Source: Oscillospiraceae bacterium (lineage in GTDB: Bacteria > Bacillota > Clostridia > Oscillospirales > CAG-382). Taken from it: 64,000 bases of DNA. The stretch covers positions 36,632 to 100,631 of the forward strand of contig SVQU01000001.1 of the NCBI GenBank assembly GCA_015065165.1, given 5' to 3'. The notes under the pieces were generated by a model that had not been told where the DNA came from, did no database searches, and was given only the letters and a program-made list of their open reading frames with translations. Below are positions 4,426-48,320 of this stretch, one piece after another; within the stretch, counting starts at the first letter, position 1; each line of letters begins with the position of its first letter. A program made the translations under genes and the position numbers.

Positions 4426-5880
4426 TTAACTACAAAGCTCCTCTAAATAGTTTAAATATTTGCCTACGGCAGAAAAAGTGCATTCCGCAAACAGAACGTC
4501 TGTTATACCGAATTGCTCAATGGTGTCATTTAATGAAACTGTATATTCTCGGCAATCGACAATATAAATTTCTTCGAATCCCTTCATTAAAAACGGCGCT
4601 AAAGCGTTGCCGTAGCTGTCTTTAACAATCAAAAGCTTTCTGCCGTTTTTGCAATCTTTAGATACTGCTTTTACAGCATAGCTATCACCGCGGATGAAAG
4701 TTGAATACCAACTGCTTCTCTGGTTATCGCCGATATCCCAAAAGAAGCCGTTATAGTCGGGAATACCATCGTGGTCTTTATCAAAGGTCAAGGGATTTTC
4801 ATTAAAGCTTTCTTTTGAATAGTAATATACGTCATATTCGGTATCGGGATAGTATACAGTGAAGTTCTCGGGGTTATTCAGTATTTTAGAGTTGTAATCG
4901 GAATATTTATACATAACGCCGATATATCCTTCGCGTTGTACTTTGGTATATTCCGAAAGGGGGTCAAAGGCGATGCCTGCCTTTTCGGCGAATACTTGCG
5001 CGCCGTAATATGCGCCTAATGCCGACCAGTGCGTGTCGGTTCGAAAATAAATTTCTTCATCTGCATGTATACCCAGTGTGTTATATATATTGACGTCAAT
5101 TACTTTTTCCGACAAATTATTTGATATTGTGTCTATATCTCGTTTGTTACGATATATATATCCTTCGTATCCTTTTGCCTGTTCCACGTAATAAGCGCTG
5201 GCTTTTGGAATAACCATTGAGTAAACGTTTACGCTATTGTTAAGCTTGTCCGCAAATTCGTTTAAAATTTTAGCATATCGTTCTGCACCCGAAGTACTTC
5301 CGCCGTAAAGCTCGATAGCACGTGTACCTACAATTAAAATCGAGCCTGACATTTCGGGGTTTACGTCTCCTTCCGGCTCATCCATTGGTTCGGAAGAAGA
5401 AGTATCCGATTCATCACTTTCGATGGGCGTTGAAGACTCTTCCTCGGAAGAAACTATTGAAGATTCCGAATAATCAGAAATATCAGAAATATCAGAAATA
5501 TCAGAAATATCAGAAGTAACGTCTATTATTGCGCTTGATTCATTTGGGATAGCTTCGCTTGCAATACTATTATCAGCTTCATCATCCGATTCTTCATAAA
5601 CAACGTAAAGTTGTTCGTCATCCTTGATACCGTATAAATCGTTGATTTTGGTTTCGAAATCGATAAATCTATCACGGGAATTTATGGTATCGGTAAAGCA
5701 GTACACTACATCCTTTAGATATTCACCGGAGAAAAACGTTTCAAAGGAAAATTCTGGCCATTCCTTTAAAACGCTATAATCCGAAACCTCTGTACGGGGT
5801 AAAAATACAGAGAAAACAAACATAAAGAGAAATACCGCAACAAAGACGGATACACATAATATTGTTGTAAACTTCTTCAT
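4426..5880 (-). CDS. DHHW-family (AlgJ/AlgX-like) protein with N-terminal membrane anchor
   Basis: N-terminal TM helix (ILCVSVFVAVFLFMFVFSVFL) and an acidic Ser-rich linker. Motifs are YFRTDTHW and KDSYGNALAPF. Paralogue of 3004-4425; its stop abuts the next start. Confidence 0.75.
   Translation of the reverse strand: MKKFTTILCVSVFVAVFLFMFVFSVFLPRTEVSDYSVLKEWPEFSFETFFSGEYLKDVVYCFTDTINSRDRFIDFETKINDLYGIKDDEQLYVVYEESDDEADNSIASEAIPNESSAIIDVTSDISDISDISDISDYSESSIVSSEEESSTPIESDESDTSSSEPMDEPEGDVNPEMSGSILIVGTRAIELYGGSTSGAERYAKILNEFADKLNNSVNVYSMVIPKASAYYVEQAKGYEGYIYRNKRDIDTISNNLSEKVIDVNIYNTLGIHADEEIYFRTDTHWSALGAYYGAQVFAEKAGIAFDPLSEYTKVQREGYIGVMYKYSDYNSKILNNPENFTVYYPDTEYDVYYYSKESFNENPLTFDKDHDGIPDYNGFFWDIGDNQRSSWYSTFIRGDSYAVKAVSKDCKNGRKLLIVKDSYGNALAPFLMKGFEEIYIVDCREYTVSLNDTIEQFGITDVLFAECTFSAVGKYLNYLEELCS
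5473..5517. repeat. 9-bp in-frame microsatellite (ATCAGAAAT, 4 perfect copies plus 1 imperfect)
   Basis: Read directly from the sequence. Encodes (SDI)n, seen as SDISDISDISDISD in the linker of the protein at 4426-5880. Confidence 0.9.
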
Positions 5881-42838: not shown

Positions 42839-42914
42839 GATCCATTAGCTCAGCCGGTAGAGCACATGACTTTTAATCATGGTGTCCGGAGTTCGATTCT
42901 CCGATGGATCACCA
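42839..42914 (+). tRNA. tRNA-Lys (anticodon UUU)
   Basis: Manual cloverleaf fold. Acceptor GATCCAT/ATGGATC, D-arm GCTC/GAGC, anticodon stem CATGA/TCATG with loop CTTTTAA, T-arm CGGAG-TTCGATT-CTCCG, encoded CCA. Confidence 0.85.
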
Positions 42915-45137: not shown

Positions 45138-45549
45138 ATTGTATTCAAAGGCTGCGCTTATCACAAAGGCTGTGTTTTGCGTATGCCTTTCTCCTCTTTA
45201 TATGTTATTATCAGCCTTATTAACGATAGAAGACGGATTTTTGTATTTGGTTTTTTCTATTGTTCCCGTTGTTTGCCTATATACAATTCCGTTTTGGATA
45301 ACGTTGATTTTTATAAAAAAATATCCCGTGGTTAAAATAGGGAAGTATGCACTTTTTGATTGTTTGTGTTGCTTTGCGCCTGCAGTGCTTGGTATGGTTT
45401 TGGCAGACGTTGCATATACTGTTGCGTGGGGTGCCACAAATGTTTCTGGAATAATGACATTAATATTTGTTGTGATATATTTAATTATCACTTTGGTGTT
45501 TGTTTTATTGTATTTTCTTTTTTCGTATAAATTAAAGAGCCGCCCTTAG
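45130..45549 (+). CDS. Hypothetical 4-TM membrane protein
   Basis: 139 aa. Its start overlaps the stop of the acyl-CoA synthetase. Its last 10 nt overlap the 5' end of tRNA-Arg. Confidence 0.5.
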   Translation: MDKLYSKAALITKAVFCVCLSPLYMLLSALLTIEDGFLYLVFSIVPVVCLYTIPFWITLIFIKKYPVVKIGKYALFDCLCCFAPAVLGMVLADVAYTVAWGATNVSGIMTLIFVVIYLIITLVFVLLYFLFSYKLKSRP

Positions 45550-45616
45550 CTCAGCTGGATAGAGTAACGCATTCCGATTGCGTTGGTCGAGGGTTCGAAT
45601 CCCCCAGGGCGGGCCA
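45540..45616 (+). tRNA. tRNA-Arg (anticodon CCG)
   Basis: Manual fold. Acceptor CCGCCCT/AGGGCGG, D-arm GCTC/GAGT, anticodon stem ACGCA/TGCGT with loop TTCCGAT, T-arm GAGGG-TTCGAAT-CCCCC (one A-C mismatch), discriminator G, encoded CCA. Confidence 0.8.
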
Positions 45617-45621
45617 GAAAA

Positions 45622-45651
45622 AGACCAACTCGCATGAGTTGGTCTTTTTTT
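45622..45651 (+). terminator. Intrinsic terminator after tRNA-Arg
   Basis: 10-bp stem AGACCAACTC/GAGTTGGTCT, loop GCAT, T7 run. Confidence 0.85.
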
Positions 45652-45823
45652 AACTAAATCCGCCTTCGTCGGAAGAAATCCACCCGCGGTGGATAAAATC
45701 GCTTCGCGATGAAATCTGCCTTACGTCAGGATAAGAAGGCGGATTTAATTTCATCTGAGGCGGTACGCCGAAGATTTCATCCGAGCAAAGTGAGGATTTC
45801 ATCGTGCGTAGCACGACTTCATT
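45652..45823. repeat. Inverted array of eight degenerate 9-mers (GATTTCATC and complement), each next to a short GC-rich hairpin
   Basis: Left arm units on the plus strand start at 45652, 45672, 45692 and 45708 (NANNAAATC). Right arm units start at 45747, 45773, 45795 and 45815 (GATTTCATY). A 12-bp perfect inverted repeat AAATCCGCCTTC / GAAGGCGGATTT lies at 45656-45667 and 45735-45746. Confidence 0.75.
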
Positions 45824-45848
45824 GATGCGCTGCAATTCCCGCAACTCC

Positions 45849-45877
45849 TTGCAATCTCCCCGATTTTATGCTATACT
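45849..45877 (+). promoter_or_regulatory. Sigma-A type promoter for 45893-46564
   Basis: TTGCAA-17 nt-TATACT. Confidence 0.55.
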
Positions 45878-45892
45878 AAAGATAGAAAGGCG

Positions 45893-46564
45893 GTGAGGGA
45901 TATGGGCTCTAAATCTATGAAGCAGAATTATATTTATATCACATCGAAAGAATGGTTTGAAGAAACACCGCTTAAAAATCCAGTTTTGTCACTCGACCAC
46001 AACTTAGAACAAATATATCCCAAATTTTATAATATTGAGTATGACCTAAAAATTCTCGCAACCAAGCCTGCAACTGCCGAAGAAAAGGAATGTCCGGGAT
46101 ATAATGATTATAGGGAAAAATACGGTAAATTGGATATTTCGGCAATTGATATTGCGGTTTCAAGTAATACTTCAAAAAACGTTTTTTTGAATGGTTTTAA
46201 TCAAAAACAATTTGAATATATAGCACCGCTGATAAAAGAAACTGCAGAAATATTGTGTTTGTTTAAGTGCCCTAAAATTAATGATCTTTCTCTTTTGTCA
46301 ACGTTCAAAAATCTAAGATGTGTGCACATATATTGGAACAATTCATTAGAGAATTTATGGGATATGAAGGATAATTCCGCTTTGATGGCATTATCATTTG
46401 TATACGTTACAAAGTTAAGTAATGTAGAAGCATTAGCTAACACGCATATCGAATATATTAACTTGGATAGTTCCGACAATTCCGGGAAAAATAAAAAATT
46501 AGATGTTGATAAATCTGTTTTTGAGAAAATGAAAACATTAAAGCATCTGTTTTTGACAATTTGA
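45893..46564 (+). CDS. Hypothetical protein with leucine-rich-repeat-like C-terminal half
   Basis: 223 aa. Shows LxxLxxLxNL periodicity (INDLSLLSTFKNLRCVHIYWNNSLENLWDM...LSNVEALANTHIEYINL). The start is uncertain: GTG at 45893 or ATG at 45902. Confidence 0.5.
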   Translation: MRDMGSKSMKQNYIYITSKEWFEETPLKNPVLSLDHNLEQIYPKFYNIEYDLKILATKPATAEEKECPGYNDYREKYGKLDISAIDIAVSSNTSKNVFLNGFNQKQFEYIAPLIKETAEILCLFKCPKINDLSLLSTFKNLRCVHIYWNNSLENLWDMKDNSALMALSFVYVTKLSNVEALANTHIEYINLDSSDNSGKNKKLDVDKSVFEKMKTLKHLFLTI

Positions 46565-46630
46565 TCCGTGGGAGTTCGAAACCTTATTAAGGAACGACAA
46601 AAATATCTATTTCGTAGCTTCTTGACAGAA

Positions 46631-46660: not shown

Positions 46661-46787
46661 CTTTTTCACTTTTAACTCTTCACTTTTCACTCTTCTCTTT
46701 CGAAGCTTGTCGATTAGGTAATAAGTAATAGTGAATAGTGGAGATGTAAAGGTATCCGCTTCGCGGATGATGTGAACGATTTCATTA

Positions 46788-46816
46788 TTGCAGTTAACTA
46801 AAATATATGTTATAAT
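46788..46816 (+). promoter_or_regulatory. Sigma-A type promoter of the HIT/HExxH/P-loop operon
   Basis: TTGCAG-17 nt-TATAAT with an extended TGt. A GATTTCATT unit (46778-46786) abuts the -35 element. Confidence 0.55.
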
Positions 46817-47804: not shown

Positions 47805-48320
47805 ATGATATATTTAATTGCCGGCACATCCCACACAGGCAAAACTTTATTAGCACAAAAATTACTTGAAAAATACAAAATTCCGTATTTGTCAATCGAC
47901 CATTTGAAAATGGGGTTGATAAGAAGCGGAAATACCGATTTAACCCCTTGCAGTGATGATGGGGAATTGACCAATTATCTCTGGCCGATTGTTAGAGAAA
48001 TGATTAAAACAGCTATTGAAAACAAACAAAATTTGGTGGTTGAAGGTTGTTATATTCCTTTCGATTGGGAAAACAGCTTTGAAAAGGAATATCTTGAGCA
48101 AATAAAATACGTTTGTCTTATAATGAGTGAAAAATATATACGAAATCATTTTGAAGATATAAAAGGATTTGAAAGCGTTATAGAACAAAGAATGTATGAT
48201 GATTTAGATATTGATGATTGTATTAATGACAATAATCGCAATTTAGAGATTGTAAAGAAATATAACCAAAAATATATCTTAATTGATGATGAATATGCGG
48301 TGGATGATACGTTAATATAG
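47805..48320 (+). CDS. P-loop kinase-like protein (2-phosphoglycerate-kinase/adenylate-kinase-like fold)
   Basis: 171 aa. Walker A IAGTSHTGKTLLA at the N-terminus and a hydrophobic strand plus acidic residue NLVVEGCYIP. Confidence 0.55.
   Translation: MIYLIAGTSHTGKTLLAQKLLEKYKIPYLSIDHLKMGLIRSGNTDLTPCSDDGELTNYLWPIVREMIKTAIENKQNLVVEGCYIPFDWENSFEKEYLEQIKYVCLIMSEKYIRNHFEDIKGFESVIEQRMYDDLDIDDCINDNNRNLEIVKKYNQKYILIDDEYAVDDTLI

Follow-up and report, generated by a model that had tools for sequence, protein, structure and literature searches.

Directly behind the tRNA-Arg(CCG) gene of an uncultured Oscillospiraceae bacterium, represented by a metagenome-assembled genome (MAG), lies an array of short repeated words and small palindromes, and this locus raises the question of what kind of element the array is and what may read it. 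The stretch of 64,000 nucleotides analysed here, called the window, is taken from GenBank assembly GCA_015065165.1 (contig SVQU01000001.1, positions 36,632 to 100,631 of the forward strand), and all coordinates are those of the window. The tRNA gene, with its encoded CCA, is at 45540-45616 (ARAGORN; Rfam tRNA 56.9 bits). The array following it was found to be a composite element of about 175 nt, the left arm of which is a diverged copy of Gut-1 (RF01706), a family that is known but whose function is unexplained. Comparison with at least 62 full-length homologues of the window element, found by nhmmer (E down to 2e-39) in loci of Oscillospirales MAGs, firmly establishes that the array is a diverged Gut-1 member within a larger composite unit, whose position follows strict rules and which turns over rapidly. 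This architecture and its genomic logic appear to be new relative to the literature.

Gut-1 as part of a two-armed folded element

Gut-1 was described as a likely non-coding RNA occurring in human-gut metagenomes only, without function or host, and was rated 'RNA? Y' with 18 covarying positions; it consists of three hairpins with (G)UGAAAU/UGAUAU linkers preceded by YYYYYCARYNAAAU, and one contig had four copies at intervals of 240 nt (Weinberg et al. 2010, PMC2864571). In the paper library searched, nothing on Gut-1 was found beyond that paper, neither a follow-up nor a host organism. In a permissive Rfam scan of the window, the + strand at 45651-45720 matched model positions 1-77 with 34.9 bits (E 1.2e-4), and a second, inverted match was located on the - strand at 45743-45824 (27.7 bits, E 7.6e-3), both under the Gut-1 gathering threshold of 50 bits. 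Only tRNAs were above threshold among the other Rfam families in the window, and the other sub-threshold matches near the site had E >= 0.2. With nhmmer (E 1e-10 to 1e-39), the window element could be aligned over its full length to elements of L097, L037, L005, L121 and L031, which do pass the Gut-1 threshold, and the left arms of full-length homologues score 50-77 bits, always in the sense of the tRNA, which is the + strand of the window. The three consecutive hairpins with the conserved linkers are present, and the published upstream consensus is matched by TTTTTTTAACTAAAT in the window and by TTTTTTCAACTAAAT in the family.

The published model covers the first three hairpins only, whereas the composite adds a fourth, a closing stem that competes with hairpin 1 and an inverted three-hairpin arm. 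The rule of tRNA and terminator, the promoter and the link with a four-helix-bundle (4HB) gene, all presented below, are likewise not described there. The flanks of the original seeds (PMC2864571) show a tRNA and a terminator, and then the closing repeat and the reversed array beyond the modelled hairpins. A run in these flanks, UUUUCAAUUUUCAACUUUCAAUUUCC, resembles a set of T-rich heptamers at 46663-46753 of the window (CACTTTT AACTCTT CACTTTT CACTCTT), which has a 27-nt, 78% complementary partner.

While the published family was confined to the human gut and had no sequenced organism, the homologues found here belong to Oscillospirales MAGs of several animal guts. A one-genome-per-species scan for three GATGAAAT words gave at least 120 loci; among the matches listed, the majority are gut MAGs of human, ruminant, horse and other animal origin, with the labels Eubacteriales, Acutalibacteraceae, Oscillospiraceae, Faecousia and Christensenellaceae. 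A metagenome contig in ENA is identical to the window across the region compared. Contigs ending inside the element, loci with two or three copies and several loci per MAG indicate that the element is a dispersed multicopy repeat. Two loci show other arrangements of such repeats. At ~6000-6250 of L013 a short GAAAT-type array is directly followed by hairpins joined by CGATAT words, so that both word classes occur at one locus, and at 1100-2500 of L007 two short Gut-1-type arrays lie amid a dispersed hairpin repeat of another kind (GTCATCCTGAGCGAAGCGTAGCGTAGTCGAAGGATCT and variants).

A sequence-only reading of the locus had described eight 9-nt words in two inverted sets, and re-reading of the DNA located every one of them where it had been placed. 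It also confirmed a perfect 12-nt inverted repeat (45656-45667/45735-45746), which a repeat search extended to 16 nt at 94% complementarity, and the recurrence of word and hairpin at 46754-46786, which reads ATCCGCTTCGCGGATGATGTGAACGATTTCATT. The word GATGAAATC occurs five times in the window against 0.94 expected (none of 100 shuffles reached five), three of the five being inside the element, and three words at 8-24 nt spacing occur once in the window against none expected from shuffles. The + strand of the element folds at -62.3 kcal/mol (z = -3.26; 0/200 shuffles as stable) and the - strand at -59.2 kcal/mol (z = -2.39); its G+C content is 48%, against 38.6% for the window. The array is thus real, well beyond chance and no artefact, and the word is a genuine signal, conserved across the element family. 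A tandem 9-nt repeat of another kind, ATCAGAAAT (~4.5 copies), is found at 5470-5515 of the window.

The words had been taken as units followed by separate palindromes. The palindromes are present, but they are not separate, as each word reads GAU-GAA-AUC, in which a 3-nt unpaired linker joins the 3' foot of one hairpin to the 5' foot of the next, and the 9-mers are the junctions between hairpins footed by AUC...GAU. The parts of the element are the following, with paired percentages and changes taken from an alignment of 42 homologues.

45651-45826, + strand: composite element, with left terminal word TAACTAAATC and right terminal word GACTTCATTGA; based on the full-length homologues, their alignment and covariation
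45656-45667, + strand: 5' strand (AAATCCGCCTTC) of the long-range stem P1, which is 98.4% paired, with double-sided changes at columns 12 and 13
45659-45673, + strand: hairpin L1, a local alternative to P1; 87.8% paired, covarying at the same two columns as P1
45678-45694, + strand: hairpin L2, ATCCACC-cgc-GGTGGAT; 95.4% paired, 4/7 pairs with double-sided change
45698-45710, + strand: hairpin L3, ATCGC-ttc-GCGAT; 95.7% paired, inside the Gut-1 match
45714-45732, + strand: hairpin L4, ATCTG..CAGGAT, imperfect; in all homologues, with a varying stem register
45735-45746, + strand: 3' strand of P1 (GAAGGCGGATTT), closing L2-L4 into a four-way junction; the minimum-free-energy fold forms P1
45753-45775, + strand: hairpin R1, ATCT-GA-GGCG-gta-CGCC-GA-AGAT, with a tandem G.A internal loop; 85.0% paired, 43 G.A against 3 T.C cells
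45779-45797, + strand: hairpin R2, ATCC-GA-GC-aaa-GT-GA-GGAT, with tandem G.A; 83.9% paired, 42 G.A and 0 T.C cells
45801-45817, + strand: hairpin R3, (A)TCGTGC-gta-GCACGA; 97.5% paired, all 4 inner pairs with double-sided change

The same alignment disclosed a fixed plan. On the left, CAACU is followed by the 5' strand of P1, AAAUCCGCC (or L1), and by L2, L3 and L4 separated by GAA; on the right, the 3' strand of P1, GGCGGAUUU, is followed by R1, R2 and R3 separated by UUC and by the terminal word CAUUGA. The words are invariant and the stems variable, each hairpin keeping a position-specific identity across species. When P1 and six hairpins are taken together, pairing extends to 88.6% of cells, while slid partners give 29-44%, and double-sided changes occur in 26 of the 51 pairs. 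Compensatory cells number 234, against 70.5 +/- 8.1 in shuffles, none of 500 reaching that value. As P1 and L1 covary at the same columns, both mutually exclusive partners of the P1 5' strand are maintained.

The two strands are not equivalent. Tandem G.A is found in 85 cells of R1 and R2 on the + strand, which on the - strand would be U.C, and U.G pairs occur at two hairpin feet, so that the non-Watson-Crick pairs favour the tRNA-sense strand. The fold of the + strand is the more stable one in 41 of 49 homologues. Loops are mostly triloops, C(UUC)G being the commonest (39/180 left-arm loops), and no UNCG loop is present in the left arm. C(UUC)G on the + strand of the left arm is C(GAA)G on the - strand, while right-arm loops are purine-rich on the + strand, so that the loops are ambiguous between RNA and DNA. 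An independent small-RNA gene on the minus strand (promoter, ~190 nt, shared terminator) was considered and discarded, as no promoter is conserved and that strand has U.C/C.U and A.C mismatches. A protein-coding gene was rejected as well, in agreement with the sequence-only reading, which had regarded a minus-strand open reading frame (ORF) as a by-product: the frame is broken in 28 of 49 homologues, and homologue lengths (160-201 nt) fall into all three residue classes, so that there is no triplet constraint.

Borders, turnover and the neighbouring gene

The element stands between a terminator and an outward promoter, and in the window it is followed by a small gene and by parts of a second, similar unit.

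45618-45651, + strand: hairpin hp0, a terminator of the bidirectional intrinsic type, AAAAAGACCAACTC-gcat-GAGTTGGTCTTTTT and a T run, with a perfect 14-bp repeat (45618-45631/45636-45649)
45849-45877, + strand: outward sigma-70-type promoter, TTGCAA-17-TATACT with TG extension, 23 nt beyond the element, serving the 220-aa gene
45902-46564, + strand: cargo gene of 220 aa without Pfam match; first cassette, absent at the orthologous site in relatives
46569-46626, + strand: X module (..AGTTCGAA..AAAAATATCTATTTCGTAGC..GACAG), aligning with X of L097, L017, L120 and L247
46627-46662, + strand: second terminator, AAAAACCGACAAGT-ttcg-ACTTGTCGGTTTT; also found ahead of elements in L008, L097 and L077
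46754-46786, + strand: remnant of a second element, ATCCGC-ttc-GCGGAT and the terminal word GATTTCATT, arranged as full elements are at their right end

A tRNA of the same sense is located 35-46 nt upstream in at least 30 of the 62 copies, in the orientation seen in the window, and belongs to at least 11 types (Arg, Gln, Trp, Val, Phe, Leu, Thr, Ser, Gly, Pro and Glu); several further copies are preceded by ...CCAGAAAAAG ends not called by ARAGORN, and no tRNA was found downstream of the element in the 62 copies. The tRNA, the element and the cargo genes share one orientation. At the left border there is in every case a hairpin, then five bases (CAACU or CAGUC), then AAAUCC. In other MAGs the same families of terminator hairpin accompany different tRNAs, at a constant 5 nt ahead of the element, one of them (CCGACAAGTTTCGACTTGTCGG) being also that of the second terminator of the window, and a subgroup of copies has a conserved non-terminator hairpin in the place of hp0. 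As identical hairpins recur beside different tRNAs, and as the hairpin of the subgroup occupies the same place, the upstream hairpin belongs to the unit. In the window, hp0 serves both as the terminator of the tRNA and as the first of the hairpins in the repeated unit. The other tRNA gene noted, tRNA-Lys(UUU) at 42839-42914 of the window, has no element behind it.

On the other side, homologues linked to the 4HB gene have their last word, CATTGA(C/A), as the -35 hexamer, and a TG-extended TATAAT follows at 17-18 nt. The remnant in the window abuts the promoter TTGCAG (46788-46793)-17-TATAAT (46811-46816) of a HIT-family gene. The X module, of ~60 nt, is conserved at cassette ends, and in L097, L017, L120 and L247 it lies between the element and the next terminator and element. 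Its pattern is AGTTCGAA..AAAAATATCT.TTT.GTAGC..ACAG, ending like a tRNA 3' end (..CAG|AAAAA); as an ORF, a tRNA remnant or a promoter it was in no case convincing. Farther along in the variable region, 47805-48320 contains a small P-loop kinase-like gene, whose matches to Zeta_toxin and AAA_33 are weak and stay below threshold.

That the array marks the boundary of swapped DNA had been proposed from the sequence, and it is borne out by close relatives, which differ in everything 3' of the tRNA CCA. The relatives compared share the flanking AMP-binding protein at 90% identity or more, and the orthologous tRNA-Arg is present in four loci (L123-L126). In L123-L125 the tRNA-Arg(CCG) site carries a different terminator and an element of the same architecture, all words of which are GAUGAUAUC/AUAUCAU; this element reaches 59 bits with the Gut-1 model, above threshold, and the gene downstream encodes an acetyltransferase. 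In L124 a second terminator and then a mini-array of the GATAT type are also present. In L126 the tRNA-Arg is followed by a third terminator and unrelated genes, with no element even at E<=10. Identity of whole flanks between relatives was uninformative.

Another pair of loci, L385 and L387, is 100% identical rightwards from ACCA|TGCAAAAAG through terminator, element, promoter, 4HB gene and beyond, while to the left of ACCA| the two are unrelated, L387 having a tRNA-Pro ending in ...CCCCGACCA and L385 a ParA-like region. Since the break is at the tRNA 3' end, this end is a recurrent breakpoint. Tandem copies also occur, with repeated units of terminator, element, promoter, gene and X in L035, L097, L031, L254 and the window. 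At 2012-2845 of L254, tRNA-Trp, terminator, element, promoter and the first ~60 nt of the 4HB ORF are abruptly followed by a second element at GAAATCCGCC, and then by a promoter and the full 4HB gene, so that the two copies are in tandem and joined within the 5' end of the 4HB gene. In L031 (1202-1774) one copy is reversed, 9 nt upstream of tRNA-Leu(TAG) and after the strong promoter TTGACA-17-TGgTACAAT, and two tandem copies follow the tRNA; judging by this layout, the reversed copy should be transcribed in the opposite sense within the tRNA leader.

Terminal inverted repeats are present and imperfect (CAAyTAAATC...GATTTCATTG in the window family, CAATGATATC...GATATATCATTG in L123). A phage origin was considered and dropped, as a scan of viral contigs gave 120 loci that were mostly coding D-E-I repeats, and only two with the element, both at the tRNA-side contig end. 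These two (L227 and L209, IMG/VR) have the element at the contig end behind a tRNA 3' end and a terminator, L227 with a truncated 4HB start, and may be prophage or island borders at tRNA genes.

Among the 286 ORFs neighbouring the copies, the only recurrent one is a gene of ~115 aa of the PF05635 family (23S_rRNA_IVP, Avd-like; 90.5 bits), found at 18 loci. This family consists of small four-helix-bundle proteins that are associated with structured nucleic acid and stable-RNA genes. In 14-16 of 48 informative loci the element is followed at 26-59 nt by the start of the 4HB gene, in the same orientation; no 4HB gene is present in the 64-kb window. The subfamily is very large, with at least 8000 candidates, all those scored matching, and its best clusters are mostly on contigs of 0.5-2 kb. 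Two clades, 50% identical to each other, could be compared with the word class from the protein side; the metagenome scan for the GATAT type had given only two true matches in 120 loci. Upstream of clade A (2 proteins) a GAAAT-type element was found in 10/10 places fetched, and ~44 nt upstream of clade B (3 proteins in several contexts; 1431 clusters in the clade) a GATAT-type element was found in 24/24. In agreement with this, L312 has a GATAT-type element behind a tRNA and then a divergent (clade-B) 4HB gene. This match of clade and word is striking, yet no proof of recognition.

Translationally coupled behind the 4HB gene are variable genes (NTP_transf_2 nucleotidyltransferase, DMP19-like, WapI-like immunity protein, DUF6678, and several without Pfam match; loci examined were L054, L035, L057, L048, L116, L065, L037 and L247), which by their predicted products look like orphan immunity or toxin-antitoxin-type cargo. 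L378, from the same sample as the window, was tried as the same organism and discarded, its protein accession being from a different MAG.

Readings of the element

Being between a terminator and an outward promoter, the element is poorly placed for transcription. Selection for single-strand structure, strand bias and the position at cassette borders together favour a junction module read by a factor acting in trans. The reading that we prefer, and advance tentatively, is therefore that of a cassette-junction module recognised as a folded single strand, the window copy having no partner gene of its own. The junction would have three parts, a terminator hairpin used by the upstream tRNA, the multi-hairpin element and the outward promoter, and would open cassettes of small accessory genes behind a tRNA CCA end or a previous cassette in Oscillospirales of the gut and rumen. 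Its tRNA-sense strand would fold into eight short hairpins, with the long-range stem closing three of them and competing with the first, and folding would present the invariant 9-nt words at the hairpin feet. These words (GAUGAAAUC here, GAUGAUAUC in the sister class) would be read on the folded strand, either DNA exposed in replication or recombination or read-through RNA, by a trans-acting partner, for which the PF05635 4HB (Avd-like) protein is the best candidate. The window copy would then be non-autonomous and mark the cassette with the 220-aa gene. We infer that the words serve as a recognition code read by the 4HB protein, and that the purpose is gain, loss or control of cassettes.

Several observations weigh against this reading. 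No target-site duplication was found around any of the 62 copies, and no transposase, integrase or recombinase within 3 kb of any copy (286 neighbouring ORFs). About 70% of copies, that of the window included, have no adjacent 4HB gene; one copy, in L031, is reversed inside a tRNA leader, and both word types are mixed in L013. The clade-to-word match concerns physically linked DNA, and co-inheritance could explain it. PF05635 proteins are not known to act as sequence readers, and Avd binds nucleic acid without specificity. Finally, the only paper found on Gut-1 considers it a likely small RNA (Weinberg et al. 2010, PMC2864571).

This last view leads to the alternative of a structured RNA in the tRNA sense, produced by terminator read-through or processing, which could act as a protein sponge, as an element of mRNA processing or stability or as a read-through trap, with the GAA linkers as binding sites. 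Covariation, variable stem lengths, U.G and tandem G.A pairs on one strand, the constant agreement of Gut-1 orientation with tRNA sense, the co-orientation of tRNA, element and cargo, and the published rating with its covarying positions all agree with an RNA, as do short Gut-1 arrays inside 3' untranslated regions before a terminator (e.g. L004). However, nearly all copies are 5 nt behind a strong terminator with no conserved promoter ahead, the outward promoter downstream excludes the element from the cargo mRNA, and in the subgroup without tRNA a terminator facing the element shields its right end too. The loops, mostly triloops and without UNCG in the left arm, and the lack of conservation of the element at the orthologous locus in close relatives also speak against it, and we consider an RNA rather unlikely, if a serious contender. 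Dispersal in many copies that break assemblies, imperfect terminal inverted repeats formed by the outermost words, terminators adjoining the element on either side, greater likeness of copies within than between genomes (by eye, the L035 pair) and the lack of a linked mobility gene in the 286 ORFs would suit a selfish or neutral repeat, similar to repetitive extragenic palindromes and their mosaic elements (REP/BIME) or to miniature inverted-repeat transposable elements (MITEs), spread by an unlinked enzyme or by gene conversion into harmless terminator sites, with the 4HB gene and cargo hitch-hiking. Such a repeat would not be expected to lack target-site duplications at 62 copies, to keep a fixed distance and orientation to a 4HB gene whose -35 box it supplies, to agree in word class with the 4HB clade in all 34 places fetched from the protein side, or to keep position-specific hairpins across species, and this explanation is doubtful.

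The sequence-only reading had favoured a double-stranded operator or iteron array, in which a regulator binding cooperatively to the 9-mers of the duplex would control the outward promoter. Its right arm does lie at about -35 to -110 of that promoter, the last word being the -35 box in many copies, the words are invariant and the spacers variable, and the word class switches in concert at all eight sites. The two-turn phasing on which cooperative binding had been based is not conserved, as word spacing is ~15-26 nt in homologues, and the promoter of the window is 23 nt beyond the element. Plain double-strand binding sites would leave unexplained why the spacers are self-complementary and covary as hairpins, as well as the strand-asymmetric mismatches. 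Iterons do not fit the absence of a rep gene or of an AT-rich unwinding region, nor the chromosomal context (recA, cysS, lexA). The supposed DnaA box was rejected, because the DnaA-like word TTATCCACC (TTATCCAC) arises by a G-to-A change and is seen in only 2/42 homologues. A duplex operator is thus improbable; what may remain of the idea is a protein-recognised site, regulatory or recombinational, on a folded single-stranded nucleic acid. The preferred reading of a junction module has in turn a bolder form, which we regard as unlikely on present evidence: Gut-1 element and 4HB protein would be a two-part system with matched classes (GAUGAAAUC with clade A, GAUGAUAUC with clade B) that builds and exchanges cassettes at tRNA CCA ends in Oscillospirales, with toxin-immunity and nucleotidyltransferase genes among the cargo; it would be an integron-like platform of Firmicutes with a multi-hairpin single-strand site instead of attC, and copies such as that of the window would be served in trans.

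Known systems and significance

Integron attC sites are conserved in structure, variable in sequence and strand-specific, and border small, promoter-poor tandem cassettes. The element resembles them as a structured site between tandem small cassettes, with turnover of cargo at a fixed anchor (the tRNA-Arg site), yet its ends do not match RYYYAAC/GTTRRRY (R''/R'), it has eight hairpins rather than a single bulged one, no IntI-type integrase occurs within 3 kb, the site carries its own terminator and promoter, and the anchor is a tRNA 3' end. Integrons are not known from Firmicutes. REP/BIME of enterobacteria are multicopy intergenic palindromes in mosaics of alternating orientation, placed after 3' ends and terminators and able to act at DNA and RNA level. 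The element is probably multicopy too, to judge from MAGs with several loci, from tandem copies and from contigs that end within it; in contrast, REP stems are conserved in sequence within a genome, whereas here stem sequences are variable and only feet and linkers are constant, the hairpins are fixed in number and specific to position, and no RAYT-type transposase was found among the 286 neighbouring ORFs. MITEs and transposon ends share the terminal inverted repeats, but neither a target-site duplication (62 copies) nor a cognate transposase (286 ORFs) was detected. With iterons and DnaA-box clusters the element has in common short words at roughly 20-nt spacing in non-coding DNA; iterons are, however, directly repeated 17-22-bp sites by a rep gene, and here 9-nt words in two inverted sets with covarying hairpins are chromosomal and have no initiator gene. 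The RNA arrays of type III toxin-antitoxin systems differ in that the unit stems here are unlike one another, with no upstream promoter and no ToxN-like neighbour.

The rAID-1 loci of Bacteroidales, gut bacteria, reportedly consist of tandem small immunity genes that are recombinase-associated and have a conserved intergenic module. Tandem small genes, including immunity-type ones, a conserved intergenic module and gut hosts are found here as well, but in another phylum, with no recombinase found, with the Gut-1 composite as the module and with immunity-type cargo in few loci only. The recurrent neighbour gene belongs to the same PF05635 family as Avd and the proteins of 23S rRNA intervening sequences; unlike in Avd systems, no reverse transcriptase, template repeat or variable repeat is nearby, and the gene lies behind a tRNA and not inside an rRNA. 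The link of Avd with PF05635 has been reported (PMC10053308).

The present analysis places Gut-1 in host lineages, namely in MAGs of Oscillospiraceae and Acutalibacteraceae, and the published motif is only the left part of a larger two-armed module. This module follows rules: it stands behind a terminator, usually at a tRNA CCA end, and before an outward promoter, and it is coupled to a 4HB gene, the clade of which goes with the linker word. A functional coupling would represent a new way for gut Firmicutes to assemble and exchange small defence or immunity genes, and a role for PF05635 outside diversity-generating retroelements. Otherwise the element would still be a marker of variable islets by tRNA genes and a recurrent cause of broken assemblies. 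The architecture described here makes the question of the role of Gut-1 directly testable.

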